Assembly: GCA_963710365.1 (NCBI GenBank)
Contig: CAVQAC010000019.1
Span: 552,969-616,968, forward strand
Direction: 5' to 3'
DNA from: an uncultured Planctomycetales bacterium
Lineage (GTDB): Bacteria; Planctomycetota; Planctomycetia; Pirellulales; PNKZ01
Length of the DNA: 64,000 nucleotides
A program made the translations under genes and the position numbers. Shown piece after piece: positions 3,410 through 53,696 of this stretch (the first letter of the stretch is position 1; every line of letters starts with the position of its first letter). The notes beneath the pieces were generated by a model. The model made no database searches, was not told the DNA's origin, and saw only the letters and a program-made list of their open reading frames with translations.

Positions 3410-3489
3410 GCCTTGTTCCGGCCCACGAGCAGGCTATCACGGCGTGTCGCACTCTGCGTGCCGCGCCTCCGTTGTACCCTGCCGCCCGA

Positions 3490-8460: not shown

Positions 8461-9436
8461 ATGAACCGTTTATGCTTTTGGTTCGTGCTGATTGCCTGTT
8501 TCTGCGATTCGTTCTCGACGTTTTCCCAAACGCCGACGCGTAAGCCGACGGTGTGGATGTGCCCACCGGGATTTGACGGCGGCAAGCATTTTGCCGAGCT
8601 GTTCGAAAAGCCCGACGAGTGGCAGCAAACCCGTAAGGCGATCGACGTGCTGGGCTATGCCGACCTGAACTTCAAGAAGCACTTCAGCGACGAACAGTTG
8701 CAGGCCTGGCTTCCCAAATTGAACGAGTGGGGCATCAAGCTCGGGCTCGAAGTCGGCGCCATCAAGGCTTGGGGCCAGAACCGGTGAAAAAGCGTTCCAG
8801 GCCGAGCAGCCAATCTGGCAGCGGATCGAGCGGCTCGGGGGCAAGATTCATTCGATCGCCATGGATGAGCCGCTGTGTTGCTGCCGCAAGGAGATCCACC
8901 AGCCCGACGACTATGCCGTCGCGCGAAACGGCCAATTACATCGCCCTGGTGCGAAAGCATTATCCGCAGATGCTGATCGGCGAGATCGAGCCGTATCCAT
9001 TTCTTTCGCTTGGACGAGCACATCGCCTGGATCGAGGCGTTGGAAAAACGCCTGGCCGAATTGCAAGTTCGCGGCTTGGACTTTTATCGGCTGGACGTGA
9101 ATTGGGTGGAATTCAACGCGCAAAGCCGCGGCATCGTGGCGCGAAGTCCGCAAGCTGGAGCAGTACTGCCGCCGGCGGAAGCTGCCGTTCAGTCTGATCT
9201 ATTGGGCCTCGGGCTATCCGGCGCTCGAGCGTCGCGGGCTGGCCGACGATGCGGCCTCGTACGTTTCGATCATGCAGCAAGGCTACGATTACGCGCTGGT
9301 CGACGGCTCGCCGGATCAGATCGTGGTGCAAAGTTGGATCAATGCGCCAAGCCGCAGCGTGCCGGAAACGGTCGACTTCACTTTCGCTCGCACGGTGCTC
9401 GACTTTACGCAGCGTTTCGCGCGGCCGAAAAAATAG
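8461..9436 (+). pseudogene. secreted hypothetical protein, at least 4 frame breaks (about 8780, 8925, 9005, 9130)
   Basis: Signal peptide MNRLCFWFVLIACFCDSFSTFSQ. Protein-like sequence continues by hopping frames: ..LEVGAIKAWGQ / TGEKAFQAEQPIWQRIERLGGKIHSIAMDEPL..DDYAV / ETANYIALVRKHYPQMLIGEIEPYPFLSL / DEHIAWIEALEKRLAELQVRGLDFYRLDVNWVEFNAQSRG / WREVRKLEQYCRRRKLPFSLIYWASGYPALERRGL...TQRFARPKK, with a stop at 9434-9436. Confidence 0.5.
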
Positions 9437-15907: not shown

Positions 15908-16783
15908 TCAGGCGCTCGCCGCGCGGGCGCCGCTACGGCCTGACGGCTTGCGAATGCGACCCTCGTCGCTGGTAGCTGCCGTCAATGATTGTGCGAGTTG
16001 CTCGATGGCCCTGGTGGCGTCGCAGTTCGGGTACGCCAGCACGAACGGCACGCCCTCGGCTGCCGCCTGCGTGACGCACGGATCGCTGGGCAGCTGGCCG
16101 GCCCCGCTGATCTTCAATCCCAAGAAGCGGCGGCAGGCCCGCGACAAGCGTTGCTGGACGTCTGCCGTGGTGGCATGGTCGGCGGCCTCGTTCACCAGCG
16201 ATTTGAGCAAGGGGCGGGGCCCGGCGGCACACAGCACCTTCACCGCGGCATAAGCGTCCATCAGCGACACCACGTCGGGCGTCGTCACCAGCAGCACGCA
16301 ATCGGCCGCTTGCCAAAAATGGCCGATCACTCGATTGGCTCCGCTGCCCACGTCGAGAATGATGTAGTCGGCGTGCGCCCCCAGGCATTTGAGTTGATGA
16401 ATCAATCGCTGTTGGGCCGCGGGCGAGCAATCAACCAGTTCGCCGCGTCCCCAGGCTCCCGGCAGAACCTGGATTCCGGCCGGGCCGCGTTCCAAGGCCT
16501 CGTGAACCGAAAGGGTGCCTGAGAGGATTTCCGCCACGGTGTGGACCGGTTCCTCCAGGTGACACAATCGACCGGCATCGGCCTGCTCCAAGTCGGCGTC
16601 CACTAGCACCGTGCGGCGTCCGTCTCGGGCCAGGGCAATGGCCAGATTCACGGCGATCGTCGTCGTGCCGACGCCCCCTTTGCCGCTGGTGACCACGATC
16701 AACTTGGGAGGTTGTTCCGCGGCCGGAGGGTGCAATGCTGCTCGCAACACCAATTGTCTCAATTCGTTCGCTTGATCGGGCAT
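15908..16783 (-). CDS. flhG: MinD/ParA-type ATPase FlhG (FleN/YlxH)
   Basis: Deviant Walker A VVTSGKGGVGTTTIAVNLA, with DADL and ILDVGSG motifs. It lies directly downstream of flhF, as in other flagellar clusters. Confidence 0.85.
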   Translation of the reverse strand: MPDQANELRQLVLRAALHPPAAEQPPKLIVVTSGKGGVGTTTIAVNLAIALARDGRRTVLVDADLEQADAGRLCHLEEPVHTVAEILSGTLSVHEALERGPAGIQVLPGAWGRGELVDCSPAAQQRLIHQLKCLGAHADYIILDVGSGANRVIGHFWQAADCVLLVTTPDVVSLMDAYAAVKVLCAAGPRPLLKSLVNEAADHATTADVQQRLSRACRRFLGLKISGAGQLPSDPCVTQAAAEGVPFVLAYPNCDATRAIEQLAQSLTAATSDEGRIRKPSGRSGARAASA

Positions 16784-16790
16784 GGCAGGT

Positions 16791-16902
16791 TAGTGATGAG
16801 TGATGAGTGATAAGTGATGAATGGAAAAGACGATGTGCTCAACGATGAATGACAAGTTCAAATGCGGGGCATTTAGCACTTATCCTTGAGCATTTATCAT
16901 TG
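16791..16902. repeat. inverted heptanucleotide arrays (AGTGATR)n filling the flhF-flhG intercistronic gap
   Basis: Left arm 16791-16824 tAGTGATGAGTGATGAGTGATAAGTGATGAATGG. Right arm 16870-16902 CATTTAGCACTTATCCTTGAGCATTTATCATTG, an imperfect complement with 7-nt periodicity that overlaps the flhF stop at 16897-16899. The left arm ends 7 nt before the flhG start. Confidence 0.7.
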
Positions 16903-18047
16903 CCCTTCCAGTCCCAGCACGAGCCTGGCCAGTCGGCGGGCATCGGCCGGTGCGATATCGTCGGGAACATTCTGCCCATCGGTCACATAACTCAAAGGAA
17001 GCTTGCTGGATCGCAACAACGGAAGCAAGGAACCCAGACCCATGGCTTCGTCCAGCTTGGTAAGGATTAAAGCCGTCGTGCCGACCTCGGCAAAACGCTC
17101 GGCGGTGCGCTGGAGCGTCGAGCCGCCGGCTACGCTGCTGAGCACCAGATGCACTTCATCGGCGCCGGCTTCCGTAAGGAAGGATCGCAATTCCTGAATC
17201 TTGACTTCATCCTTGGGGCTGCGGCCGGCCGTGTCTAACAGCACCAGGTCGAGATTCGACATCGACCGCACGGCTTCGCGCATTTCGCGGGGCGTTGAGA
17301 CCACCTGCATGGGCAGATCGATGATATCGGCGTAGGTCCGCAACTGCTCGACGGCCGCGATTCGATAGGTATCGACGGTGATCAGCCCGACCTTGCGCTT
17401 CTCGCGTAAGCGGTAGTTGGCCGCGAGCTTGGCAATGGTGGTCGTTTTGCCCACGCCGGTCGGACCGACGAGCGCCACGAGATGCGCGCGGCCGGCGGTC
17501 AACGCCAGCGGCCCGGCAACATGAATCTGGTCTTCGATCGTCCGAGCGATGTGGGCCTTGAGTAGCATCGGATCATCGCCTGCCGTGGCCGAATGACGCA
17601 TGCTGTCGACAAGTTCACGAGCCAGATCTTCGCCGACCTCGGCATCGATGAGATCCGTATAGAGCCGGAACAGCGACTCGGGCAGGTCCGGCTGATGCGA
17701 TTGGCGTGTCCGACGGCAGAGGGCTTCAACCATGGTTTGCAGTTCGCTGAGTTGGCCCTGCACTTGTTCGCGAAACGGATCGCGAGTTTCTCGCGGCGGT
17801 TGTGCTGGCGCGACGGGCGGACGAGGACTGGGCGGCGGCTGTTCGGGCTCGCGCGGCGGCAGCCGGCTGGGCACGTTCACCTGCGACGAGGCCAGAACCT
17901 CGATCTGTCGAAGCCCGGGGATCCAGCGCAACAGTCGGCTGCCGCAGATTTCCCGAGTGTGCAATACCGCCGCGCTCGGCCCCAGGTCGTGGCGTACCAT
18001 GAGAGCGCCTCTTGCATGGTCCGGGCGCGATAAGTCTTGACTTCCAT
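16897..18047 (-). pseudogene. flhF: flagellar biosynthesis SRP-type GTPase FlhF, one frame break about 18000
   Basis: LVGPTGVGKTTTIAKLA (G1), DTAGRS (G3), LTKLDE (G4). The true N-terminus MEVKTYRARTMQEALS (ATG at 18047) lies in another frame and joins ..VRHDLGPSAAVLHTREI. Confidence 0.85.
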
Positions 18048-18094
18048 GGCAGGTTGATCGATCGGTTTTTAAGGTGAGAAAACAGGTTCTTCCG

Positions 18095-20172
18095 TTACGT
18101 TCGGGCCGGCGGCACGTCGGCGACCAGTCCCAGTGATTCGATCTGCGTATCGCGCGTGATTTCGTTGTAGCTCAGCACCACCAACTGCGGCAGGTGCGAG
18201 GATGTCATCTGCTTGAGCGCCGAGCGGATTTGTGGGCTCACCAGCACGATGGGCGGATGGTTCGTGCGAATCAGTTTGTCCAGCTCCTTGCCGATCAGCC
18301 GGCTGATCGTTTCGATGGCCGTCGGCGACATGCGGATGAACAGGCCTCGATCGTTGTGCTCGAAGCCGGCTCGAATACGGTCCTCCAAGGCCGGGTCGAG
18401 CGTCACGACGTACAACCGGCTGTTGGCGTCGCGATAGCGGCTGCAAATGGTGCGGGCCAACCGATGGCGGACGTATTCGGTCAATAACAAAGGGTCGCGG
18501 GTGCGGCCGGCGTAGTCGCCCAGCGTTTCCAGGATCGGACTGAGTTGGCGGATCGGCACCTGCTCGCGCAGCATCATCTGCAGGATCTGTTGCACTTCGG
18601 CCAGCTTCAACTGGCCGGGAATCAATTCGTCGACCACGGCCGGCGAGGCTTTTTTCAGTTCGTCGACCAGATGCTTGGTGGCGTCGCGACTGAGAATTTC
18701 ATCGGCATGCTTGCGAACCGTTTCGGTCAGATGCGTGGCCAGCACGCTGACCGGCTCGACGACCGTATAGCCCAGCATTTCGGCCTGGTCGCGCTGCGCG
18801 GGTTCGATCCACACGGCGGCAGTGCCGAAGGCCGGCTCCTTGATTTGCAGGCCCTTGAGCTTGCCGGTGGTCACGCCGGAATCCATGGCCAAGAGCATTG
18901 CCGGGTAAATGACGCCGTCGGTGACCGGCACGTCCGACACCTTGAGCCGATAGGAGTTCTGTTCGAGCCGCATGTTGTCGCGGATGCGGACCTTGGGCAT
19001 GATGATGCCGATTTCGGCAGCCACGTTCTGCCGCACGCGTTGCACGCGCTCCAGCAAGTCGCCGCCGCGTTTGGGATCGGCCAGCCGAATCAGGCCTACG
19101 CCGATTTCGATCTCCATCGGATCGACGGACAGGTAGTCTTCGATGCGTTCTTCGGCCGGCTTCTTCTGGTCGGCCTGGGCCTTGGCCTGGGCGACCACCT
19201 TGGTCTGCTTTTGCTTGCGCGAAAGCATCACCGCCAGCGCGCCGCAACCGCCGCCGATGGCGATCAAAGGAGTCTTGGGCAGGCTCGTGAACACCAGCAT
19301 CAGCAGAAATCCGGCAGTCACGGCCAGCGCCTGCGGACGCGAAAACAACTGCGACATGAAGTCCGCCGGCAGGCTGCTGTCGTTGCTCGAACGCGTGACG
19401 AGCAAGCCGGCTGCCAGCGAGATCAGGAAGGCCGGCACCTGGCTGACCAGGCCGTCGCCGATCGTCAGCTTGGTGAAGATTTCAGCGGCGGCGCCGATAC
19501 TCATCCCCGATTCGATGACGCCGATGAACAGTCCGCCCACGATATTGACCAGCGTAATCACGATACCGGCGATGGCGTCGCCGCGCACGAATTTGCTGGC
19601 ACCGTCCATGGCCCCGAAGAAATCTGCCTGGCGGCTGATGTCCAAGCGTCGGCGCTGAGCTTCGCGTTCGTCGATCACGCCGGCGTTCAGGTCGGCATCA
19701 ATGGCCATCTGGCGGCCGGGCATGCCGTCCAAGGCAAAGCGCGCGGCGACTTCGCTAATGCGCGTGGCGCCCTTGGTGATGACGACGAACTGAATCACCA
19801 CGATGATCGTAAAGATAATCAGCCCCACGACGACCCGGTCGCCGGCCACGAACTCGCCGAACGTACGGACGACCTCGCCGGCCGCCAGCAATCCGTGGGT
19901 CTGGGCGCGGTGAGTATCAGCCGCGTCGTGGCAACGTTGAGCACTAATCGGCCCAGCGTCGTGGCCAGCAACAGCGAGGGAAAGATGCTGAATTCCAGCG
20001 GCGTGCGCACGTAAATCGTCGTCAGCAACATGATGACGGCGACGCTGATGTTGATGGCCAATAACAGGTCCATCAGCGCCGGCGGCATGGGCACCATGAT
20101 CACCAGCACGCTGGCAATGAAGCCTAGCGGCAAGATCAGGTCGGCCGCACGGCTGAGCACGTTACGCGCCAC
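18095..20172 (-). pseudogene. flhA: flagellar type III export protein FlhA, one frame break about 19905
   Basis: The C-terminal 598-aa piece carries the FHIPEP core (GAMDGASKFVRGDAIAG) and the cytoplasmic domain. The N-terminal TM piece (..ADLILPLGFIASVLVIMVPMPPALMDLLLAINISVAVIMLLTTIYV..ATTRLIL) is in the frame of ORF 19819-20427. The start is taken as the GTG at 20172 (VARNVLSR..), which is uncertain. Confidence 0.88.
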
Positions 20173-22590: not shown

Positions 22591-23669
22591 TTAACGCCGT
22601 GGATCGCGTAGCGGCTTCTTGTTGCCGTTCAATTGATAGACATACGCCAGCACTTCGGCCACGGCAGCGTACAGCGGACCAGGGATCGGCCGATTGATGT
22701 CGACGTCCTTGTAGAGCGCCTGCGCGAGCGGCTTCTTCTCGACGATCGGAATGCCGTGCTCTAGCGCCAGCCGGCGAATCCGCTGGGCAAGTAGGCCAGC
22801 TCCCTTGGCCACCACCACCGGCGCCGCCATCTTCTCGGGCTCATAGCGCAAAGCCACGGCCAATTCGGTCGGATTGGTGACCACCACGTCGGCCTCCGGA
22901 ACCGTCTTCGATAACCGATGCAGCACGAGTTGCCGCTGCACCGCCTTGCGACGGGAGATGACCTGTGGATCACCCTGCAGGTTCTTCATTTCGTCGCGCA
23001 GCTCCTGCGTCGACATCCGCAGATCCTGCTCCTGCTTCCACCACTGGAAGCCATAATCCAGAATGGCCAGCAGTAACAAGGCGATAGCCGCCTTGAGCAC
23101 TGTCCAAAAGATAATCTGCAGCAGGTAGGATCCGATCTGCGCCAGTGACAAGGTGGCCAGCCCGAGAATCGTGTCGCGCTCGTCTTTCAGCGACCAAAAG
23201 CAAACCGCCGCGACGACTCCAATCTTGAAGAAGCCCAGCACCAGCCGCACCACGCCAGCCATCGAGAACAGCCGTTGCAAGCCTTGCAAAGGGTCGATGC
23301 GGGAGATGTCAGGGGCAATCTTCTCCGGCAGAAAGAGCAGTCCAACTTGTAGCACGTTGGAGCCCACCGCAACCAGCAGTATCACCCCCAAGAGCGGCAA
23401 GCCGACGGCGGCCAGCAAACCCAACAGACGCAGGAACTCACTGGTGACGAACTGGCTATCGGCCGAGAGCCAGGCCTGCCCGCCCCATTGCTCGATCCCC
23501 AGGTTGCCGAAGAAGCCGATCAGTGATCCGCTCAACCAATAGAGCGTCAACAGCGCTCCCAGCAACAGCAATGACGATCCCAGATCCTGGCTGCGCAACC
23601 TGACCTTGCTCGCGCCTGCTGGCGGCGGTGTGGTGTTGCTTCCTGGGTTTTTTCGTTTCCCTGTTCCAT
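22591..23669 (-). pseudogene. flhB: flagellar export switch protein FlhB, N-terminus spread over three frames (breaks about 23600-23625)
   Basis: The core frame has ..RMSTQELRDEMKNLQGDPQVISRRKAVQR.. and the autocleavage site VVTNPTELAVAL. The canonical N-terminus MEQGNEKTQEATPHRRQQAR (ATG 23669) / EQGQVAQ / SQDLGSSLLLLGAL is recovered only by two 1-nt corrections about 25 nt apart. Confidence 0.85.
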
Positions 23670-23680
23670 AAATCAAATAC

Positions 23681-23883
23681 GGAATGGGGAATGAGAACAA
23701 ATGGGGAATGTCGAATGGGGAATGGGGAATTCGGAACCGATGAAATCAACTGAGAGTTGAGCGTAAGCTCGGATTGAATCGGTTGCTGGAAACTTTTGAT
23801 CGTTCAAATTCCCCATTCCCCATTCCCCATTCCCCATTCCCCATTCCCCATTCCCCATTCCCCATTCCATACTCCCCATTTCC
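23681..23883. repeat. inverted heptanucleotide arrays (GGGGAAT)n / (ATTCCCC)8 filling the fliR-flhB gap; G-quadruplex-capable on the mRNA strand
   Basis: The right arm has 8 perfect ATTCCCC units at 23808-23863 plus degenerate units to 23883, and abuts the fliR stop at 23884. The left arm 23681-23732 has about 7 degenerate GGGGAAT units and ends 11 nt before the flhB ATG. The spacer is 75 nt. Confidence 0.85.
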
Positions 23884-24650
23884 TCAGCTCCACATCTCGC
23901 GCATCAACTGCCAGGCCTGCTCGAGCTGCTCCTGGAAAACCCAGGCTACCGTCCCCAAGGAGACGCCTAGCGCCGCAAAGGTGACCAGCGCGCCAAACCG
24001 AATCCAAAGGAAAGCACGTTGAGTTGCGGCAACGTGCGAGTGATCAGCCCCAACACCACGTTCGACAGTAGCAGGGCCGCCGTGCAAGGCGCGGCAATTC
24101 GCACGCCAAGTTCGCAGCTCAGGGCGACGAGCGTAACCAGGGTCTCGGAAAATGACGCCATCGGCGTGCCCGTGCCCGCCGGCATGGCAATGAAGGTATC
24201 CAACAGTCCACCCAGCACCATCCGATGGCCGCCGATCGTGACAAAGATGGCCAAGGCAAACATATTCAGCACCTGCGACAGCAAGGGAACATCCGTGTCG
24301 AGGTCGGGATTCAGAACTTCGGCCAGCGACATGCCGCCCAATTGGCTGATGATCTGGCCGGCCAACTGCACGCCCGACAAGATGATCATCACGCCCAGCC
24401 CCAGCACCAAACCCAACAGCGTCTCACAGCCGAGTGTAATGACGTAGCCCAACAAAGTGGTGGGCATCGAAAACTGGCCGCCTAGCTGTGCCGGCGTCAC
24501 CAGCAGCGCCAAGGCCATCGATAGAAACACCCGCACCTGCGAGGGAACATTGGCGCCGCCCAGGACCGGCACAGTCATCACCAGGGCGCTGGTGCGAAAC
24601 AGCACCAACGTGAACACGAAGAACTGCGTCAGATCGAACGGTGGGATCAT
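23884..24650 (-). pseudogene. fliR: flagellar export apparatus protein FliR, one frame break about 24000
   Basis: MIPPFDLTQFFVFTLVLFRTSALVMTVPVLG.. is a polytopic membrane protein. The C-terminal 30-40 aa (ALVTFAALGVSLGTVAWVFQEQLEQAWQLMREMWS) continue in the frame of ORF 23884-24087. Confidence 0.8.
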
Positions 24651-24737
24651 ACGCCAGTTGCCAGCAGCCGGTTAGCCGTCGCCTCAATGGCAAGTCCTGG
24701 CTTGCCTGCGGTTCGTGCTCCGCGAACCTTCGCCCCG

Positions 24738-26544: not shown

Positions 26545-26569
26545 CCGTGAATCCAAAGTGGAATTTGGT

Positions 26570-26657
26570 AAGTGATGAGTGCTAAGTGCTGAGTGGTGAG
26601 TGAGGCTGAGACGTGGATTGCTTTGCACTCATCACTGATCACTCCTCACTCATCGCT
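26570..26657. repeat. inverted heptanucleotide arrays (AGTGNNN)5 / (CACTNNN)4 filling the fliN-fliO gap
   Basis: 26571-26605 AGTGATG AGTGCTA AGTGCTG AGTGGTG AGTGAGG. 26626-26657 CACTCAT CACTGAT CACTCCT CACTCAT CGCT abuts the fliN stop (26658). The spacer is 15 nt. Confidence 0.75.
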
Positions 26658-27221
26658 CTATTTGTCGCTTGATATCAATTCGGCGACGCGAACGCAGAAG
26701 TTATCGTTGAGCACGAGCACTTCGCCGCGAGCGATCAAGCGCCCGTTGACGTAGATGTCGACCGGGTCGCCGGCCAGCTTATCCAGCGGCACGACGGCCC
26801 CTTTGCGCAGCCGGAGCACGTCTTCCAGGTACATGTTCGTGCGCCCTAACTCAATTTTCAGATCGAGCTCGACGTCTCTCAACAACTCGAGTGTCGCATT
26901 TTCCTGACTGGGCGGAGCGCCGGTGAATTCCTCCAGCTTGAACGGCTTGGCCGCAGACGGCATTGGGCTGCCTGGGCTGTCGATCGAAGCCAGCGCGCGC
27001 TCGGCCTGGTGCAACAATAGTTCGATATCCTCCGTGGGCGGGCCTGCATCGCCCTGCTCACCGCCTGACGAGGAATCGTGCCGCGCGGAGGCCGATTGAA
27101 AGAGAGACTCTACGCCCGAGGCCGAAGAACCGCCGGAAGTCTTTCCGGCAGCTGTCCGCGCCTCCTTCATCAGCGCCTCGATGTCTTCCTGGCGCAACGT
27201 CTGAGATTCGGGCTCGGCCAT
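26658..27221 (-). CDS. fliN: flagellar motor switch protein FliN/FliY
   Basis: The C-terminal SpoA domain reads [69 protein letters not shown]. The N-terminal [10 protein letters not shown] motif resembles the CheY/CheC-binding peptide. Confidence 0.85.
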
Positions 27222-33410: not shown

Positions 33411-34106
33411 TCACGGCCCCTGGCTGGGCACCGGTTGCAGTTGGGTTTTGGCCTCGTCGATCAGCGTCAGTTCGGGTTCACCAGTGCGAATCAGTTTCAG
33501 AATCCTGGCAAGTCGATCGCTCTCGTCGGGCGTTTTGAATTCGGCGAGCAACTTGGACCGTTTGGCCGGCGCCATCGCCGAGATCAGGGCCACAACGTCC
33601 TTCATGCTCCCCTCGTCCATCATGTGGACGATTTGCTCCTTGGCCTGTTTGGGTTTCATGTTCTCAATGAGCAGCCGCGTGGTTTCGGCGTCGGTTGAAA
33701 GCGTCGCGGAGCGGAGTTCATTGAGTTGTTTTTCGAAGGCGCTCTTTACTTGTGTATATCGGCTTCTTTCGTCCACTAGTTTGGTCTGGTCGAGCTGGAA
33801 CTCTTGAACCTGGTTCTGCAACGACTGCTCACGCAGTTCGAAGTCGCGGCTTCTGATGGCCCGCGCACGCGCAACGTCGACCAGCGCCACGGCCTGCTGG
33901 CGGTCCGGCGCCTCTTCCTTCTTCTCTTCGCTCGGCAGGACGATGCGGGCCTTGCCCTGTGCCACCGCCAGCCATCGTTCCAGCCGGCTCTGTTCGAGCC
34001 AACCCTGCGACCAGCAATAGCCGAGCCCCACGACCTGGGCCAGCACGGTGCCGATCGACAGGCTGGCCACGATCAGGCCCGCCAGCCGAATTAACTTACC
34101 AATCAT
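33411..34106 (-). CDS. MotE/YlxF-like flagellar protein (MgtE-N-like C-terminal region)
   Basis: N-terminal TM segment (LAGLIVASLSIGTVLAQVV), a coiled-coil middle and a C-terminus IENMKPKQAKEQIVHMMDEGSMKDVVALISAMAPAKRSKLLAEF. It occupies the ylxF slot between fliJ and fliK. Confidence 0.6.
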   Translation of the reverse strand: MIGKLIRLAGLIVASLSIGTVLAQVVGLGYCWSQGWLEQSRLERWLAVAQGKARIVLPSEEKKEEAPDRQQAVALVDVARARAIRSRDFELREQSLQNQVQEFQLDQTKLVDERSRYTQVKSAFEKQLNELRSATLSTDAETTRLLIENMKPKQAKEQIVHMMDEGSMKDVVALISAMAPAKRSKLLAEFKTPDESDRLARILKLIRTGEPELTLIDEAKTQLQPVPSQGP

Positions 34107-34548
34107 AGGGCGGTCTCTTGTGGCCGCAGCCGTCCGGCAATTTCATCCAGGTGCTCCAGCGCATCGCGCTCCGCACCGCGCGCCAGCGCTGAAACTGTGT
34201 TTCTCGCAGCTTCTCCAGCACGCGCACGTCCTGGTCCGCCCAGACCAGGGCCTGCCGGCGCTTTTCCACTTCGGCATTCATATTGGCCTGCTGCTGTTCG
34301 AGATTGTGCTTCTCCAACAGCAGGACCATCTCGTAACGTTCGGCAACCAGCAAACGGTCAATATCGACGGCTCCGCGCGGCGCCGTGTGCATCTGCCGGG
34401 CTTCATCAAGCTTGAGCCGCAATTGCTGCATATCGCTATCGAGCGACGCCTGGATTCGCATGACCTCGGCCAGTTGCGAGCGGCGTTCGTCGCGCACCGC
34501 CTCACGCAGCCGCACCAGCGAGTCGAGCCGGAATTGGAATTTCTTCAT
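34103..34548 (-). pseudogene. fliJ: flagellar export chaperone FliJ, probable frame break about 34185
   Basis: MKKFQFRLDSLVRLRE.. is coiled-coil FliJ-like. The listed ORF ends ..SAMRWSTWMKLPDGCGHKRPPYDW (not protein-like), whereas the +2 frame reads AERDALEHLDEIAGRLRPQETAL with a stop at 34103-34105. That stop forms an ATGA overlap with the next gene's start (34106). Confidence 0.7.
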
Positions 34549-35912
34549 TTATTCACCGTCGTTTGGGAAGTCATGTTGGCCTGGATGCGCTGAATGCAGC
34601 GAGCCCGCAATTGCAGAAGCGCTCGCCGCGCTTCTTCCACCGAGCTCCGTTCGTCGACTCGCTGGCGAAGGAACTGTTGAATCGATTCGAGCATGTCGAT
34701 CGCCAGGTCGACCGTTCGCTGACTGCCGCGACGATACGCTCCGATCGAAATCAGATCTTCATGGTCGCGATAGGTCGCCATTAACTCGCGCACGACTCCG
34801 GCTGCTTCGCGATGGTCTTCGGGCGTGATCTCGGTCATCAAGCGGCTGATGCTCTCCAGCAGATCGATGGCCGGGTAGTGATTGCGCGTGGCCAGCTTGC
34901 GCGACAGCCAGGTGTGGCCGTCGAGCAAGCCGCGAACCGCGTCGGCAATCGGTTCGTTGGCGTCGTCGCCTTCGACCAAAACCGAATAGAAAGCCGTGAT
35001 ACTTCCCTCCGGGCTCCGGCCAGCTCGCTCCACCAACCGTGGCAGCATGGAAAAGACCGAGGGGGTGAAGCCACGCGTCGTCGGCGGTTCGCCAGCCGCC
35101 AGCCCGATCTCGCGCTGTGCCAGCGCAAAACGGGTCAGTGAATCCATGACCAACAGCACGTCCCGGCCCGTATCGCGGAAGTATTCGGCGATGGCCGTGG
35201 CGACGAAGGCGGCGCGAGTTCGCAACAGGGCCGGTTCGTCGCTGGTGGCCACGACGACGACGCTGCGGGCCAGCCCTTCGGGCCCCAAATCACGTTCGAT
35301 GAATTCATTGACTTCGCGGCCTCGTTCGCCGATCAGCCCGATCACGTTCACCTGGGCCGACGTATAGCGGGCCATCATGCCCAACGTCACGCTCTTGCCC
35401 ACGCCCGAACCGGCGAAGATGCCCATGCGTTGTCCCTTGCCGCAGGTCAGCAGTCCGTCGATGGCACGGATGCCCGTCGACAGCGGCGTATCGATCCGCG
35501 GCCGCTCCACCGGATTGGGCGGCTTGCGGTCGAGCGGAGTTCGCTCGGGCAGCGTGGGCTGAGGTCGGCCGTCGATGCAATGACCCATGGCATTGACGAC
35601 GCGTCCCAGCAGCGACGGCCCGACGCGAATCCAGCTCTTGGTCCGCTTCAGGCGCACACGGTTGCCATGCCGGACGCCTTGCATGTCGGCGAAGGGAAAC
35701 ACCAAGGTATGTTCGGCGTTGAAACCAATCACTTCGGCCTCGAGGACGCCCCCTCCGAGCCGCTCGATTTCAACCAGCGCGCCCACCGGCGCCGGAAAAT
35801 CGGCCACGGCCGCGGTCATGCCGACCGTTCGCACGATGCTCCCTTCGAGCGCCGTGGGAATCAGCGTCTGTAATTGGTCGGCCAGTTCGAGCATGATGCG
35901 ATCCGTTCCCAA
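34545..35912 (-). CDS. fliI: flagellum-specific ATPase FliI
   Basis: Walker A GIFAGSGVGKSVTLG and Walker B VLLVMDSLTRFA, with F1-ATPase beta-like colinearity. The reading frame is intact. Confidence 0.95.
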   Translation of the reverse strand: MGTDRIMLELADQLQTLIPTALEGSIVRTVGMTAAVADFPAPVGALVEIERLGGGVLEAEVIGFNAEHTLVFPFADMQGVRHGNRVRLKRTKSWIRVGPSLLGRVVNAMGHCIDGRPQPTLPERTPLDRKPPNPVERPRIDTPLSTGIRAIDGLLTCGKGQRMGIFAGSGVGKSVTLGMMARYTSAQVNVIGLIGERGREVNEFIERDLGPEGLARSVVVVATSDEPALLRTRAAFVATAIAEYFRDTGRDVLLVMDSLTRFALAQREIGLAAGEPPTTRGFTPSVFSMLPRLVERAGRSPEGSITAFYSVLVEGDDANEPIADAVRGLLDGHTWLSRKLATRNHYPAIDLLESISRLMTEITPEDHREAAGVVRELMATYRDHEDLISIGAYRRGSQRTVDLAIDMLESIQQFLRQRVDERSSVEEARRALLQLRARCIQRIQANMTSQTTVNK

Positions 35913-35921
35913 CGATCTTCG

Positions 35922-36575
35922 TTAAATCAATTCTTCCACGATCCGGTTCAACTGCGATTCGAATTGCTGATCGATCGATCCATGGCGGGTCTCTACGCGA
36001 CAGCCGCCGGGCGTGACTGCGCGGATCCGGCACCACTTCGCCGCACCAACGCGCGATACCTCGGCCGCCAGCGTCTGCACCTGTTCTCGCAGGGCCGCGT
36101 AGTCGTCCGGATTGAGCAATACCCGCACTTCGGTGCTGCCGCGTGACAATTCCAGCGCTTCGCGCATCAGGGGCAAGGCAACCTGCGGGTCCGATTGCAG
36201 TTCACGGCGCAACACGCGGGCGGCCATTCGCGCCGCCAGACGGATGGCGCCATTTTCCCATTGCGCCAGCCAACCCGGTTGGGCTTGCACGATTCCCTCG
36301 ACCGCCGCCCGCAAGGCGGGCAATACCGTCTTCATCTGCTCGGCGACCTTTTTATCGAGCAGATTGTTGGCCTCAAGTTGCGCGGCCTTGCGGCCTTCGT
36401 TCTCCGCTTGTTGACGAATTGCCTGGGCTTCTTTCGAGGCCTGCGCAAGAATCTGCCGGGCCTGGTCGCGAATTTTCTCCAGGTATTCGTCGGCCCGCTG
36501 AGCCATGTCGTCGAAATTGAACGCCACGCCATGGATGCCGCGATTGCGATCGGTAGCTTTGATAATGGTCGACAT
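35922..36575 (-). CDS. fliH: flagellar assembly protein FliH
   Basis: 217 aa with an N-terminal charged coiled coil (AQRADEYLEKIRDQARQILAQASKEAQAIRQQAENEGRKAA) and a C-terminal FliH/YscL-like domain. It lies between fliG and fliI. Confidence 0.75.
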   Translation of the reverse strand: MSTIIKATDRNRGIHGVAFNFDDMAQRADEYLEKIRDQARQILAQASKEAQAIRQQAENEGRKAAQLEANNLLDKKVAEQMKTVLPALRAAVEGIVQAQPGWLAQWENGAIRLAARMAARVLRRELQSDPQVALPLMREALELSRGSTEVRVLLNPDDYAALREQVQTLAAEVSRVGAAKWCRIRAVTPGGCRVETRHGSIDQQFESQLNRIVEELI

Positions 36576-36590
36576 GCTGTTGATCTGTGG

Positions 36591-37617
36591 TTAGTGGCTA
36601 CCAACGTACTCGTCACGCACGCTGCCTGCGGCAACACTCCCCGTAGCCGGCAGCTCAATTCGGCCTTCGCTCTCCAAGCGCGCGCTGTGCGGGCGAGCTC
36701 GCGTTGGGCTTCCTCGACGTCGCTCAGCCGCGTGGGCCCCGGGGTGTTGAGCGCCTTGCGCAAGGCCTTGCCTTCGGCGGCCGGCAGCAGCCGCAATATC
36801 TGTTCCAACAGCGAGACAGGCGCCGTGGCCAGCGCCAGGATGACGATCTCCGGCTCGGCCGATGCCAGGATCGTCATCAAGGTCTCGTCGTCCAGCCCGG
36901 CCAGGTCGTTGAACGTGAATTCCACTTTCCGCTGGACCAGCCGGCCCGCCAATTGACGGTCGTGCTTCGCCAGGTTGGCCAGCATGTCGCGCTTCACGCC
37001 AGGGTCTGCCGCGGCCAGGATGCTGGCCACGGCCTTCACGCCGGCGGCGCGGCGGCGCTCGTCGCGAATTTGTTCCAGGATGCGGGTTTTCAATCCCCGC
37101 TCCACTTCCCATAAAACTTCCGGGTTGGCGTCGTCCAGATCGACCAGCCGGCGAATGACATCAACCTGCAAGGCCGGCGGCAGTGGCGCCAGCACCTCGG
37201 ACGACTGATCGGGCGACAGATGCGAAATGACCAGGGCAATCGTCTGCGGATGTTCGCCGGCCAGCAGTTGCGTCAACTTGTGGGCTTTGGCTTCGTGCAG
37301 AAAACGGAACGGCACCGGTTCGTCGCCAGATTCCCATTCGACGGCTGCATGCGCCGCGCGCACGGACGACGTTCGCCCGGCCCGTCAAACGCAATGCCGG
37401 TTGGATGGTCAGTCTGATCGTTGGGCCCGACGCCAAAGAACTCATCGATTACCTGATTCTGTTCGCTGGCATCGATCTCTGGAAGCTCGACCATCGCCTG
37501 CCTGACGAGCGACGCTTGCTCGGCCGACATCTGGTCCAACAGACGATCGGCCGTCGCCCGATCGAGGCTCGAGACCAGGATGGCCGCTTTACGGAGGTCT
37601 GGTTTTATGTCGTTCAT
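36591..37617 (-). pseudogene. fliG: flagellar motor switch protein FliG, two frame breaks (about 37360 and about 36685)
   Basis: MNDIKPDLRKAAILVSSLDRATADRLLDQMS.. (N-terminus). The middle frame has HPQTIALVISHL, VERGLKTRIL and FNDLAGLDDETLMTILASAEPEIVILAL. The C-terminus ..ARALESEGRIELPATGSV..stop lies in the frame of ORF 36591-37112. Confidence 0.88.
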
Positions 37618-40994: not shown

Positions 40995-42434
40995 TCATCC
41001 GGCTCTTGCCAATTTCCTCGCCCGCGGGGCATAGCCATATTCTTTGAGCTTACCCGAGAGCGTTCGTAGACCGATGCCCAGCGCTTCGGCCGTCTTGGCG
41101 CGATGCCCTTCGAAGTGGTCCAACGTCGATTCGATCAGCTTCCGCTCCATGTCGTGCAGACTCAGGCCGACGGGCAAGTCTTCGGACGTTGTAATCGAAT
41201 CGCTGCCGGGCGCCGCAATCAACCAGGGCCGCAATTCATCGGCCGAGATCGGACCGTCACCGCCCAGCACGCTTGCCCGCGTTACGATGTTCTGCAATTC
41301 GCGGACGTTCCCCGGCCAGTAATAACCCAACAGCAAGTCGTCGGCGCCCGGTTCGAGCCTGGCCGGCTCGCGGTGCAGGCGCGCGGCCGAGCAGGTTAAG
41401 AAATAATCGACCAGCTCGGGAATATCTTCGCGACGCTCGCGCAGCGGCGGCACTTCGAGCGGAATTACCGCCAGGCGATAGAACAGGTCTTCACGGAATC
41501 TACCGACGGCGACTTCCTGGCGTAGATTTCGGTTGGTCGTGGCCAGGACGCGCACGTCGACGTGCCGCGTCTCGCTCGAGCCGACGCGTTCGAAGCTTTT
41601 TTCCTGCAAGACCCGCAGCAGCTTGGCCTGCAATGCCAGATCGATCTCGGTGACTTCGTCCAATAGAATCGTGCCACCGTCGGCAAGTTCAAAGCGCCCG
41701 GTCCGCGAAGCATCAGCGCCGGTGAAAGCGCCACGCTCGTGTCCGAACAGTTCGCTTTCCAACAGGTGCGCTGAAAGGGCGGGACAGTTCAACCCGATCA
41801 GCGGCGCGCCGGCCCGGGTGCTGGCCGCATGCACGGCCTGGGCCACCAGCTCTTTGCCCGTGCCGCTTTCGCCCGTGATCAGCATGGTTTCGCCGGTCGG
41901 GGCGGCTCGGGAGATACGATTTCGCAAGGCCTGCATCGCCGACCCGGAACCGATCATCACCGGCGAAGCCCCCGCCCCCGCGTGCTCGGCGGCCGGCAAC
42001 GGCCGGTTGTGGTCGAGCAGCCGCCCATGGGCCACGGCTCGCTCCACGAGTTGTTCGAGCCGATCGGCGGCAAATGGTTTTTCGATGTAGTCGAAGGCTC
42101 CGTGCCGCATCGCTTCGACGGCCGAGCCCACGCTGGCGTAAGCCGTGACCATGACGACCTGGGCCCCATGCTGACGCCGCTCCAGTTCGCGGATGAATTC
42201 CAGCCCGCTCATGCCGGGCATTTGCAGATCGGTGAGCACGACGTCGACGCCCTGCTCGGCGAGATACTGCAGGGCTTCCACGGCGCTGGACAGGCTTTCG
42301 ACGTGATGCCCTGCATGACGCAGGATATCGGCCATCGAATCGCGCGCCTGGCGGTGATCGTCAACAACGAGAATCCGGCCTTGAGCCGAGACACTGGTGA
42401 TGGTTGCGCAGGTGGTCCGCGATTTGGTGCTCAT
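40995..42434 (-). CDS. sigma-54-dependent response regulator (FleR/FlrC/FlbD-type: REC + AAA+ + Fis HTH)
   Basis: Start MSTKSRTT.. (42434). REC domain RILVVDDH...VVLTDLQMPGMSG. AAA+ domain with GESGTGKE, the GAFTGA loop (ERGAFTGA) and GTILLDEV. The C-terminal HTH is AKTAEALGIGLRTLSGKLKEYG. Confidence 0.9.
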   Translation of the reverse strand: MSTKSRTTCATITSVSAQGRILVVDDHRQARDSMADILRHAGHHVESLSSAVEALQYLAEQGVDVVLTDLQMPGMSGLEFIRELERRQHGAQVVMVTAYASVGSAVEAMRHGAFDYIEKPFAADRLEQLVERAVAHGRLLDHNRPLPAAEHAGAGASPVMIGSGSAMQALRNRISRAAPTGETMLITGESGTGKELVAQAVHAASTRAGAPLIGLNCPALSAHLLESELFGHERGAFTGADASRTGRFELADGGTILLDEVTEIDLALQAKLLRVLQEKSFERVGSSETRHVDVRVLATTNRNLRQEVAVGRFREDLFYRLAVIPLEVPPLRERREDIPELVDYFLTCSAARLHREPARLEPGADDLLLGYYWPGNVRELQNIVTRASVLGGDGPISADELRPWLIAAPGSDSITTSEDLPVGLSLHDMERKLIESTLDHFEGHRAKTAEALGIGLRTLSGKLKEYGYAPRARKLARAG

Positions 42435-43293
42435 GCGGCAGCCTCCAGGCGCTGCGCGGGATACGGATCGTGAACGCGGCCCCGCCTTCAGGACAGTTCG
42501 TGGCGAGCACTTCGCCGCCGTGTACTTCGGCCACGCGATCGACGATGGCCAGGCCCAACCCGGTGCCCGTGCTCTTGGTCGTGAAGAACGGCTCGAAAGC
42601 CCGGCGGGAAACTTCATCGGACAATCCGGGGCCGGTATCGGCAATTTCCAATTCGACGGCCTCAGGCCCGGCATAGGCAGTGAACACCAACTGACCACCG
42701 TCGGGCATGGCGTCAATGGCGTTCAAGGCCAGATTGAGCACGGCCCGCCGCAGCATCTCGCGGTCGGCCAGGGCTTCGAGTTGACCGGCGATGTTGATTT
42801 CCACCTCAATGCCCTGCGCGGCCAGTTGCGGCGCCAGCGAAGAACGCACGTCGTCGATCAACTGGCGAAGCGGGAGGCGGACCAGGTGCGGGTCGCGTTC
42901 GGCGGTAAAGTGCAGCAGATCGTTGACCGTCGTATCCAGCCCCATCACGCCGGCCTCGACCTTATCCAGAACTTCGCAACTGCCGGAGTCTTCGGAGATC
43001 CGCCGCCGTAGCAGGCTCAGATACAGCGAGACCGGCACGAGATTGTTGCGTACTTCGTGAGCGATGTGCGAGGCGATCTGGCCCAGGTCAGCCAGACGAT
43101 TCTTGCGAGCCAGCTCGCGATTCTTGATTTCCAATTCGTCGGTCAGACGCCGAACCTCTTCGCGCAACGCGGAGTGCGTCTGCTCCAGACGAACGGTGGC
43201 GCCGTGCCAGGCAGCCAACACGGTTTCCAGGTCGGTTTCGTCGGCCTGACACATGCCTGTAGAGAAGATGTCGTCTTGCATGGCTTGCCTCAT
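42361..43293 (-). CDS. cytoplasmic sensor histidine kinase (FleS-like); true stop probably at 42431
   Basis: H-box LGQIASHIAHEVRNNL, N-box LNLALNAIDAM, G1 DTGPGL, G2 STGTGLGLAIV. The start MRQAMQ (43293) forms an ATGA overlap with the upstream stop. The listed tail (WRLPHEHQIADHLRNHHQCLG..) looks like read-through. A 1-nt shift gives ..IPAQRLEAAA and a stop in an ATGA overlap with the regulator start. Confidence 0.85.
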   Translation of the reverse strand: MRQAMQDDIFSTGMCQADETDLETVLAAWHGATVRLEQTHSALREEVRRLTDELEIKNRELARKNRLADLGQIASHIAHEVRNNLVPVSLYLSLLRRRISEDSGSCEVLDKVEAGVMGLDTTVNDLLHFTAERDPHLVRLPLRQLIDDVRSSLAPQLAAQGIEVEINIAGQLEALADREMLRRAVLNLALNAIDAMPDGGQLVFTAYAGPEAVELEIADTGPGLSDEVSRRAFEPFFTTKSTGTGLGLAIVDRVAEVHGGEVLATNCPEGGAAFTIRIPRSAWRLPHEHQIADHLRNHHQCLGSRPDSRC

Positions 43294-43745
43294 GACTGAC
43301 TGGAGATATCGAGATGCCCGTGAGGGCGGCATGGATCGGACAAATAGGCCCCGCGGGCCTGGCTGGCCGAGTGGGCGGTTCGCAGCCGGACCGCGACTTC
43401 GTCGCGGCGCTCGATCAACCGGTTTTCGCTGCGCTTCTCTTGTCGCATGACCTCGCGGAACAACTCCTGGCCGCGCTCGATCAACTCAGCACAACGGGCC
43501 CGCGCGGCCGGGCTGGCCCAGAGTCGCTCTTCGGGCTTCTGGTCGCGAAATGGATTCAACGCACCCTCGATTTCTTGCAGTCGAGTGATCAGCACTTGCT
43601 TGGCCGAAAGGAGCTTGATCAATTGGGTCACATCGCCCGAGTCGACGAGTTGGAACTGCTGGCGCCCCAATTCGTGAAGTTGGACCAGGCAGTCGAACTT
43701 GCGACTCATCAGTTCCGTGAGCAGGTGCGTATCCAGAACCGTCAT
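43290..43745 (-). CDS. FlgN-like flagellar chaperone (putative)
   Basis: 151 aa, all-helical. The pattern LLTELMSRKFDCLVQLHELGRQQFQLVDSGDVTQLIKLLSAKQVLITRLQEIE resembles FlgN-family N-terminal heptads. Its flagellar context supports the call. Confidence 0.45.
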   Translation of the reverse strand: MTVLDTHLLTELMSRKFDCLVQLHELGRQQFQLVDSGDVTQLIKLLSAKQVLITRLQEIEGALNPFRDQKPEERLWASPAARARCAELIERGQELFREVMRQEKRSENRLIERRDEVAVRLRTAHSASQARGAYLSDPCRPHGHLDISSQS

Positions 43746-43830
43746 GGGGTCTCGGGCGCTCGTGCGATGGTTGAGAGGTACATGCCCTGCAAGCAGGGCA
43801 ACTGGCGTCCGCTATCCAATACTCTTGAGT

Positions 43831-51318: not shown

Positions 51319-51362
51319 CGCCCCGGCGGAAGCGCGTCATTCCCCATTCCCCATTGGGCTTC

Positions 51363-53589: not shown

Positions 53590-53696
53590 ACGGCCGTTCG
53601 CGCCGCGGATGAACAACTAAAGAGCTCCAAACTACCGGCAAGCTTGCGCATGCCGCTCGCCACTGCCTACTGCCCTCTGCCTACTACTAAAAGCCC

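Follow-up and report, generated by a model that had tools for sequence, protein, structure and literature searches.

A convergent pair of heptanucleotide repeats in the fliR-flhB spacer of a Pirellulales flagellar export operon and the intercistronic mRNA stem that it may form

The 214-nt spacer between fliR and flhB in the window analyzed here, a 64-kb stretch of DNA from an uncultured Planctomycetales bacterium, is filled by a G-rich heptanucleotide array and an inverted C-rich arm. We favor the reading, at a probability of about 0.55, that this is a repeat pair generated by slippage which forms a stem in the mRNA between the two cistrons. The element is a member of the class of G-rich heptamer repeats known from Xanthomonas (GGGAATC) and Nostoc (GGGGA(C/T)T), and it is also part of a wider habit of Pirellulales, in which intergenic spacers are filled with heptamer arrays.

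The spacer lies within the operon fliN-fliO-fliP-fliQ-fliR-flhB, all six genes of which were assigned to the minus strand by Pfam searches, in agreement with the original prediction that the G-rich strand is the mRNA strand in front of flhB. The fliR gene (23884-24650, minus strand; PF01311) carries one frameshift at about 24000, near the 3' end of its 227-codon open reading frame (23967-24650), which stops early at 23967, as compared to 256-257 amino acids in relatives; the FliR C-terminus, ...MREMWS*, agrees with that of the relatives L013, L018, and L019. The flhB gene (22591-23669, minus strand; PF01312, E = 8.7e-102) is interrupted near 23600-23625 by two deletions of 2 nt each, which comparison with L011 and L013 located in a GCGCGCG run and in CAGAGC, and the FlhB N-terminus MEQGNEKTQEATPHRRQQ agrees with the intact relatives P0001 and P0121. 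The assembly of the window is indel-prone, with many split open reading frames, and the frameshifts of fliR and flhB are not present in intact relatives; therefore, the exact count of repeat units could be slightly off. Pseudogenization of both genes linked to the repeat was rejected as an explanation of the frameshifts, since split open reading frames occur throughout the window.

The fliR stop codon TGA occupies positions 23884-23886 (minus strand), and the first repeat-like unit starts 3 nt 3' of it. The G-rich 5' arm (23808-23880, minus strand) comprises 10.4 heptamer units (TRF period 7, 90% matches, score 125). Exact pattern matching confirmed the perfect (GGGGAAT)8 claimed on the mRNA strand at 23863-23808, and the degenerate units ATGGAAT and GGGGAGT lie 5' of this run at 23864-23877 (minus strand). 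The nine GGGG tracts that had been predicted are present as well, but not all of them are separated by the 3-nt loops claimed, because the gap between the first and the second tract is 10 nt. The following 75-nt central segment (23733-23807, minus strand), delimited by repeat search and fold, would make up the apex of the predicted hairpin; it contains a small inverted repeat of its own (23735-23747 with 23772-23784) and is not alignable with the central segments of the alleles L011 and L013. The C-rich 3' arm (23681-23732, minus strand), detected by TRF (23681-23730, 6.7 copies, 69% matches) and as inverted repeats, is real though degenerate, and it lies 75 nt downstream of the G array as had been noticed. 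It reads ATTCCCC ATTCCCC ATTCGAC ATTCCCC ATTTGTTCTC ATTCCCC ATTCC, with four exact ATTCCCC units, and its last unit, AUUCCCCAUUCC, as well as the CGYAUUUGA that follows, are conserved in L011 and L013. The 11-nt linker GTATTTGATTT then leads to the flhB ATG at 23669-23667 (linker and start codon together 23667-23680, minus strand), and the distance of 11 nt given in the original prediction is in accordance with the coordinates 23681 and 23669-23667. The best inverted match between the arms covers 37 nt with 89% complementarity, or 32 nt with 94% complementarity across the 75 nt. Searching for (GGGGAAT)3 with at most two mismatches returned nine matches against 0.00 expected from 100 dinucleotide shuffles. 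GGGGAAT sites are two in number in the 64-kb window, namely 23808-23880 and a short (GGGGAAT)2 at 51338-51355 (minus strand) between two convergent genes, while single heptamers occur at chance level.

An open reading frame of 68 codons (23879-23673) opens just past the fliR stop, spans the spacer, and is closed by a TGA that precedes the flhB ATG by 3 nt. The L013 spacer shows the same arrangement with 26 codons, and the central segment of L011 is stopped in all three frames. As stop codons are impossible in both repeat arms, this frame is probably a coincidence, and it was set aside as a candidate gene.

The same type of repeat was found at the fliR-flhB junction in five related species with 78-88% nucleotide identity over fliR and flhB, and both the GGGGAAT unit and its site are kept in L011, L012, L013, L018, and L019 at 12-17% divergence in coding nucleotides. 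The ratio of G to C units is 4:3.7 in L013, 10:5.5 in the window, and at least 15.6:1.7 in L011. In L013, four G units and 3.7 C units, set apart by a 17-nt loop, make up a perfect 26-bp inverted repeat, and the variant unit GTGGAAT of one arm is mirrored in the other arm as ATTCCAC. Perfect G units number at least 15.6 in L011 and at least 10.9 in L012, with only 1.7 C units, whereas for L018 (at least 5.6 units) and L019 (at least 9.9 units) both contigs end within the array. In L020, which is 22% diverged, a degenerate GGGAATG/ATTCCCC pair is present in a 77-nt spacer. In relatives at 65-72% FlhB amino acid identity, the fliR-flhB spacer is free of repeats and measures 26, 24, and 3 nt, and the repeat is absent from this junction in L001, L002, L003, L005, and L007-L009. 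A metagenome scan with the conserved 3' flank TCCCCATTCCGYATTTGANNNATGGAACA yielded no contig beyond the one already known. The idea of a recent slippage expansion is a reasonable one, as every relative has its own perfect array of different length.

For the RNA from 23890 to 23660 a fold of -113.1 kcal/mol was predicted as compared to -74.8 ± 4.3 kcal/mol for shuffled sequences (z = -9.0), which bears out the hairpin potential that had been pointed out. The G-quadruplex (G4) potential was likewise supported: the G arm alone is predicted to form two four-layer G4s at -61.3 kcal/mol (ViennaRNA with G4 energies), and near-identical DNA oligonucleotides form K+-dependent G4s (PMC4692102). The original prediction had regarded hairpin and G4 as mutually exclusive. 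However, about 10 units of the G arm face about 5.5 units of the C arm, and in the minimum-energy structure of the window allele with G4s allowed the long stem is kept and the four surplus G tracts are placed in one apical G4, so that both coexist; with G4s allowed, the energy is -125.1 versus -114.4 kcal/mol, and -133.2 versus -122.3 kcal/mol with longer flanks. In L013, where three GGGG tracts are intact, only a hairpin of -69.5 kcal/mol is predicted, and for L011 three G4s on a 12-bp base stem are predicted. Neither the hairpin nor the G4 fold is thus predicted to be conserved across the alleles, and a conserved switch between the two is not supported.

With respect to the start of flhB, positions -25 to -13 show a predicted probability of being unpaired of 0.00, and for AUG to +12 this probability is 0.82 in the window allele and 0.59 in L013. 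Since the AUG is predicted to be accessible in all alleles, the predicted effect on the start of flhB is modest. Coupling to a ribosome terminating at fliR, modeled by forcing stop-12 to stop+15 to be unpaired, was not adopted as an explanation: positions -25 to -13 of the window allele were still fully paired. In this model the unpaired probability of positions -12 to -1 changed from 0.32 to 0.44 in the window allele and from 0.30 to 0.68 in L013, the small gain in the former being due to predicted re-pairing of the repeats in another register.

Heptamer arrays are not confined to this spacer. A second hairpin with heptamer arms is located in the fliN-fliO spacer of the same operon (26569-26658, minus strand; TRF, sequence, and fold), where units of the (GATGAGT) type are followed on the mRNA by units of the (CACTCAT) type; it is without G4 potential and its predicted fold has an energy of -34.5 kcal/mol (z = -4.0). 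The third spacer with a heptamer array lies between two minus-strand genes (16792-16902, minus strand; identified in the same way), with a purine-rich arm that begins at the upstream stop codon and a (CATCACT)4 that ends 9 nt before the next ATG; here, predicted pairing between the arms is weak (z = -1.9). In the loci of Pirellulales that were compared, 31 period-7 arrays were detected in 222 kb as compared to none in shuffled sequences, and 7 is the commonest tandem-repeat period. The 8-10 independent inverted heptamer pairs all have the G arm 5', none being reversed. Their units vary from locus to locus, both arms matching each other within each locus, and the same architecture is also built in this lineage from the units AGTGATG, GATGAAG, ACAGGTG, and GAATGAT, which cannot form G4s. 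The pairs at L016 and L001 sit between convergent genes. In L022, a Thermoguttaceae relative, the majority of heptamer arrays have no inverted partner, and pairing is therefore not universal in the wider heptamer habit. A search of the literature on heptamer repeats in Planctomycetes returned nothing specific.

The class to which we assign the element was described by Rehm et al. (2015; PMC4692102) as tandem arrays of 2-26 units that are intergenic, mostly between co-directional genes, and found at the same position with different length in related species. In Xanthomonas, about 180 sites per genome carry the repeat unit, 70-75 convergent pairs are present per genome, and the G-first arrangement was reported there as well; moreover, (GGGGATT)3GGGG DNA oligonucleotides formed K+-dependent G4s with T1/2 above 95°C in CD data, and a competition between G4 and stem-loop has already been proposed for the class, which has no demonstrated function (PMC4692102). 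The fliR-flhB element shares the 7-nt unit with a tract of three to four G and an A/T-containing loop in tandem (here the exact (GGGGAAT)8 in the 10.4-unit array), the position on the sense strand of an operon between co-directional genes, 3 nt after the fliR TGA, the convergent inverted partner (C arm, 23681-23732), and the kept position with variable unit number (L011, L012, L013, L018, L019, and L020). Unlike the known members, it is found in Planctomycetota (Pirellulales), its unit is GGGGAAT, and its architecture is also made from units unable to form G4s.

Long heptanucleotide simple-sequence repeats are generally in excess in bacteria according to Mrazek et al. (2007) as summarized in PMC4679880 and PMC4692102, and those summaries make no mention of Planctomycetes. 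Cyanobacterial STRRs are similar in that tandem heptamers are concentrated in non-coding DNA with a sporadic phylogenetic distribution and a proposed slippage origin, whereas they are described as direct arrays and not as convergent pairs. Marine Beggiatoaceae, whose genomes have few Shine-Dalgarno sites, carry TAACTGA heptamers that precede start codons by a few nucleotides; these repeats were suggested to act post-transcriptionally, and they consist of a single unit genome-wide with one inverted pair in 170 sets (MacGregor, 2015; PMC4679880). In a comparable manner, the C-rich or pyrimidine-rich arm ends 6-12 nt before the ATG here, in L004, and in L022. The TAACTGA repeats differ in being neither G-rich nor endowed with hairpin or G4 potential. 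REP/BIME elements of enterobacteria are stable stem-loops in operons near stop codons, which can protect the upstream mRNA and uncouple neighboring cistrons; in REPs, a single palindrome of 20-40 bp with a conserved GTAG/CGTC head is dispersed in many copies and mobilized by a dedicated transposase. They are a functional analog of the fliR-flhB element, but each locus compared here has its own unit and microsatellite arms, and the data contain no dispersed copy of the core.

Several other explanations have to be weighed against a slippage-generated pair that forms a stem. The tract might be a neutral, slippage-prone microsatellite, expanded in a tolerant spot and without measurable effect on flhB or the operon. 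This would be in line with its absence from most relatives, whose spacers measure 3-26 nt, with the extreme variability of arms and central segment between alleles, with an AUG that is accessible in all of them, and with a published repeat class without known function (PMC4692102). However, unit and site have persisted in species that are 12-17% diverged, and in L020 a degenerate pair remains at 22% divergence; a single polarity in all 8-10 pairs is not what pure slippage predicts, and it is improbable that a stem of -113 kcal/mol, 12 nt away from a start codon, has no effect at all. The variant mirrored between the arms of L013 points in the same direction, although template-switch correction of quasi-palindromes could explain it without selection. 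We consider neutrality unlikely, though clearly to be reckoned with. A G4/hairpin RNA switch, in which flhB translation is set by a G arm that alternately folds into a quadruplex and pairs with the C arm, would make use of the nine GGGG tracts, of the two G4s predicted for the isolated G arm, of the great stability of K+-dependent G4s in near-identical DNA oligonucleotides (PMC4692102), and of a C arm adjoining the flhB start codon. Such a switch is nevertheless hard to reconcile with the coexistence of both predicted folds in the minimum-energy structure of the window allele, with the lack of a conserved two-state architecture (L013 being predicted as a pure hairpin and L011, with 1.7 C units, as mostly G4), and with the sister elements of AGTGATG, CACTCAT, and other units, which share the architecture but cannot form G4s. 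Furthermore, bacterial RNA G4s are reported to be for the most part unfolded or counterselected. Hence, we regard the switch as distinctly improbable.

Phase variation classically affects flagella, and frequent gain or loss of units within a population might switch or grade flagellar export and motility. Unit numbers among relatives indeed vary (4, 10, and at least 16), and four short-read contigs break within the array, which fits long or heterogeneous arrays. Yet the tract lies neither in a reading frame nor in a recognizable promoter, a search of 23300-24300 on the minus strand having detected no promoter-like site; because it is intercistronic, unit changes cannot shift a reading frame, and the length differences are between species (78-88% nucleotide identity) and not between strains. 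In the strict sense, the contingency tract of the original prediction was therefore not confirmed. Additionally, eight near-clonal Thermoguttaceae contigs from other samples, at least 99.96% identical to L022, showed no indels and a ninth, 98.3% identical, had indels only outside the heptamer arrays, a comparison that bears solely on short arrays of another lineage. For the class as a whole, Rehm et al. considered phase variation unlikely, since the associated genes are functionally random (PMC4692102), and we find it very unlikely for this locus. For a terminator or attenuator, or a mobile REP/MITE element inserted between fliR and flhB, one could adduce the long GC-rich stem followed by the moderately U-rich tail GUAUUUGAUUUAUG, the imperfect palindromic architecture, and the similar pairs between convergent genes (L016 and L001). 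On the other hand, a terminator scan was negative at the element, the tail is interrupted, and in other family members the C arm is not followed by a U tract. The 75-nt core and its flanks had no further copy in the window and the relatives' loci compared, no target-site duplication was visible against the empty sites, and the arm units differ between loci, so that they are not copies of one mobile sequence. Both variants are thus extremely improbable. Candidate families from Rfam 15 were rejected, too: only plant miRNA-precursor and 3' UTR families matched, at 26-29 bits against gathering thresholds of 85-100, which is the generic signal of a long hairpin.

Returning to the slippage-generated stem, we propose that the element consists of two convergent heptanucleotide simple-sequence repeats, presenting a G-rich arm 5' and a C-rich arm 3' on both strands, and that replication slippage generates the array and keeps its units homogeneous. 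Within one Pirellulales lineage of genus rank, the repeat pair would have filled a fliR-flhB junction that had been very short before, and it would be transcribed within the flagellar export operon. Its main consequence may be a very stable intercistronic stem that begins at the stop codon of fliR and closes about 12 nt short of the flhB AUG; the inserted material would be looped out, and flhB positions -25 to -13 would be buried while the AUG is left open. By analogy to REP-type stem-loops, such a stem might dampen or insulate initiation at flhB and act as a barrier to 3'-exonucleases for the upstream message, and its strength would be set by the unit counts of both arms. G units in excess of C units could also fold into G4s, and we thus propose that the predicted G4 is a by-product of arm imbalance and not a conserved switch. 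Against this explanation stands the fact that the long stem is not conserved, the base stem predicted for L011 being only 12 bp.

A more far-reaching view, which we regard as improbable, is that convergent heptamer pairs act under a polarity rule as a rheostat tunable by slippage, by which the cistron that follows, FlhB in this case, would be adjusted in a graded and heritable way. The G arm would always be transcribed first, so that the C arm following it would be captured at once, whereas a C-rich arm emerging first would expose a Rho loading site. The ratio of G to C units would set both the leftover G arm available for G4 formation and the extent to which the downstream leader is buried, and the alleles with 4:3.7, 10:5.5, and at least 16:1.7 would represent three settings.

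Considered alone, the fliR-flhB locus is of small stakes, being a repeat of variable length between two cistrons of an operon, with an at most putative effect. Its natural alleles in closely related species, however, include a perfect hairpin without a strong G4 at one extreme and, at the other, a tract dominated by G4 that has hardly any partner arm, and this allelic series offers ready material to test whether G-rich heptamer repeats act in bacteria, a question left open by the 2015 study. Taken together, the results suggest Pirellulales as another phylum-level home of heptamer repeats, with diverse units and a G-first polarity that is invariant in the sample. If confirmed genome-wide, this polarity would call for a mechanistic explanation.

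The spacer between fliR and flhB lies between cistrons of a flagellar export operon, with its G-rich arm on the mRNA, as the original prediction had held, since FliN, FliO, FliP, FliQ, FliR and FlhB are all encoded on the minus strand according to Pfam; by its FlhB relatives, the organism belongs to the Pirellulales (Planctomycetota). Starting 3 nt past the fliR stop codon (TGA, 23886-23884), a period-7 array opens with GGGGAGT and ATGGAAT and continues as eight exact GGGGAAT units (23863-23808, minus strand, by sequence match), for which TRF reported 10.4 copies over 23808-23880 (score 125). This G arm is followed on the same strand by a unique central segment of 75 nt (23807-23733) that contains a small internal inverted repeat, a degenerate C-rich array (23732-23681) in the order ATTCCCC ATTCCCC ATTCGAC ATTCCCC ATTTGTTCTC ATTCCCC ATTCC, and an 11-nt linker to the flhB ATG at 23669. 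The two arms are complementary over 37 nt (89%) or, in a shorter alignment, over 32 nt (94%), and three tandem GGGGAAT units with at most two mismatches occurred nine times as compared to 0.00 expected in shuffles. The array and its partner were thus confirmed, as was the proposed series of nine G tracts at 3-nt spacing, except that the most upstream GGGG tract lies 10 nt from the next. A 68-codon ORF (23673-23879, minus strand) starts 4 nt past the fliR stop, spans both arms and is closed by a TGA lying 3 nt upstream of the flhB start codon; the same arrangement is present in L013, the locus of a close relative, and absent from the related L011, and it is probably a by-product of stop-free repeat arms.

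Split ORFs, i.e., overlapping same-strand ORFs in different frames, are common in the window (e.g., 1545-3433, 33411-37384, 40995-43811 and 53691-54918). Two 2-nt losses were found in flhB (~23600-23625), in a GCGCGCG run and in CAGAGC, and one frameshift in fliR (~24000), none of which is present in intact relatives. We read the lesions as assembly indel errors and not as biology; the assembly looks indel-prone, probably long-read, rather than containing pseudogenes. Because of such errors the exact heptamer count is slightly uncertain.

Five further alleles were found at the fliR-flhB junction. In L013, whose FlhB shares a 90%-identity cluster with an intact FlhB 94% identical to that of the window (P0001), the 89-nt spacer consists of GGGGAAT GGGGAAT GTGGAAT GGGGAAT, a 17-nt loop and ATTCCCC ATTCCAC ATTCCCC ATTCC, which together make up a perfect inverted repeat of 26 bp; the variant unit has its mirror image in the opposite arm. 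L011 and L012 (FlhB 94%), contigs from two samples that begin inside the array, hold ≥15.6 and ≥10.9 perfect units, respectively, with ATTCCCCATTCC as sole remaining partner. L018 (FliR 94%) and L019 (FliR 90%) break off within the array, following ≥5.6 and ≥9.9 units, respectively, and L020 (FliR 84%) has a degenerate version in a 77-nt spacer. The carriers have in common the repeat unit, its location and, immediately ahead of the AUG, the final C unit together with its 3' flank (AUUCCCCAUUCCGYAUUUGA); between alleles, the central segment could not be aligned. Nucleotide identity over fliR and flhB is 78-88%, and the carriers are different species rather than strains. The repeat is absent from relatives at 65-72% FlhB identity (spacers of 26, 24 and 3 nt) and from most of the GTDB representatives compared at this junction, and L004, from another Pirellulales MAG, has other heptamers there. 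The presence of an own perfect array in each lineage fits continuing slippage turnover, in line with the recent expansion that had been suggested; the length differences seen are between species. In the fliQ-fliR spacer, L018 (120-200) and L019 (1655-1735) carry a long palindrome of GC-rich sequence (GGGTGCCATGCCCACGC...GCGTGGCCATGGCACCC) that was not recognisable in the corresponding window spacer (24651-24737).

Folding of the window spacer without G-quadruplex (G4) energies predicted one long stem of ~56 pairs (-113 kcal/mol, z = -9.0). When G4 energies were included, the best structure kept the stem and formed one apical G4 from four surplus G tracts (-125.1 vs. -114.4 kcal/mol without it; -133.2 vs. 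-122.3 kcal/mol with longer flanks). Since the predicted optimum holds both, hairpin and G4 do not appear mutually exclusive in this allele, contrary to the original prediction. For L013 a pure hairpin was predicted (-69.5 kcal/mol, G4 not chosen), and for L011 three G4s above a basal stem of 12 bp (-143.0 vs. -58.6 kcal/mol); in these models neither long duplex nor G4 is conserved across alleles. In the partition functions of both the window allele and L013, flhB positions -25 to -13 were completely paired and the AUG to +12 was mostly open (unpaired probability 0.82 and 0.59, respectively). A ribosome modelled on the fliR stop codon hardly opened the flhB leader of the window allele, as the repeats shift register and pair again.

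Two further spacers of the window are made of heptamer arrays. In the same operon, the fliN-fliO hairpin (26569-26658, minus strand; -34.5 kcal/mol, z = -4.0, without G4 potential) pairs GATGAGT-type units starting at the fliN stop with CACTCAT-type units whose end lies ~23 nt ahead of the likely fliO start codon. Between the minus-strand genes 15908-16789 and 16897-18171, the spacer 16792-16902 carries a purine-rich arm that begins at the stop codon of the upstream gene, followed by (CATCACT)4 ending 9 nt before the next ATG; pairing between the arms is weak (z = -1.9). A short (GGGGAAT)2 lies at 51338-51355 and a perfect 15-nt tandem repeat, (CCGAAGCTTCACTGC)3.4, at 48186-48236 (TRF score 102). 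Across 222 kb of non-redundant Pirellulales sequence, seven was the commonest tandem-repeat period (31 arrays, none in dinucleotide shuffles); units vary by locus (GGGGAAT, AGTGATG, GATGAAG, ACAGGTG, GAATGAT, ATGAATG), the two arms within each locus are complementary, and between co-directional genes the arrays extend from the stop codon across the spacer and leave 6-30 nt before the next start. In all 8-10 independent inverted pairs, drawn from L001, L004, L007, L009, L013, L016 and the window, the G/purine-rich arm is 5' and the C/pyrimidine-rich arm 3', identically on both DNA strands (two-sided probability ~0.002-0.008 under equally likely orientations). Speculatively, this polarity might keep a C-rich Rho loading site from becoming exposed. 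In the 21 kb of the Thermoguttaceae contig L022 (1-21083) there are 18 period-7 arrays, built from at least 14 different units; most are unpaired, and as many as three different arrays adjoin one another within a single spacer (17863-17971). In L022, (TTCATCC)4 lies 4-10 nt upstream of the fliQ and fliR starts (8665-8694 and 9033-9062) with no complementary partner nearby, and in L004 upstream of fliR and flhB (43-72 and 928-958).

G-rich heptamer repeats are known from Xanthomonas (GGGAATC) and Nostoc (GGGGA(C/T)T); a Xanthomonas genome has ~180 sites with 2-26 units each, ~90% of them intergenic, chiefly between co-directional genes, and contains 70-75 pairs in convergent orientation (Rehm et al., 2015; PMC4692102). 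Between species the position is kept and the length is not, the majority of repeats are transcribed, and GGGG-tract oligonucleotides form K+-dependent G4s with T1/2 > 95°C (PMC4692102). The fliR-flhB element agrees with this class in every architectural feature tested, and the "convergent" rule reported for Xanthomonas describes the same polarity as found here. Cyanobacterial STRRs and a general heptanucleotide excess have been ascribed to slippage (Mrazek et al., 2007, as summarized in PMC4692102 and PMC4679880), and Beggiatoaceae carry TAACTGA repeats just upstream of start codons (PMC4679880). No such heptamer repeats were found in the literature on Planctomycetes.

The best-supported reading is that the element is a slippage-generated heptamer repeat pair of this known class. 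We propose that, in one lineage of about genus rank, the pair invaded a fliR-flhB junction that had until then been tight, after which each arm would have expanded and contracted independently. A purely neutral repeat is a serious rival, if an unlikely one; no function was found for the G-rich heptamers by Rehm et al. (PMC4692102), who also judged phase variation unlikely. A strict contingency locus, as had been envisaged for the perfect array, is poorly supported: the L022 arrays did not vary among eight contigs from other samples at ≥99.96% identity. Poorly supported as well are a terminator and a mobile element. The G4 idea was partly borne out: formation from surplus G units is a real physical possibility, and competition of stem-loop and G4 in inverted pairs was considered possible by Rehm et al. 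(PMC4692102). As a selected feature, however, the G4 is unlikely, because sister elements of the same architecture are unable to form one and because L013 lost this capacity yet kept a perfect stem.

The most probable consequence of the slippage-generated pair would be a stable intercistronic mRNA stem that reaches from the fliR stop codon to a point ~12 nt ahead of the flhB start codon. REP-type stem-loops offer an analogy, under which the stem could weaken or insulate initiation at flhB and shield the upstream mRNA. The repeat class and the idea of G4/stem-loop competition are known; the member of the class in the Pirellulales fliR-flhB spacer is new. The G-first polarity, invariant in the heptamer pairs sampled, deserves follow-up, as does the natural allelic series, which would allow hairpin and G4 to be tested directly against each other.
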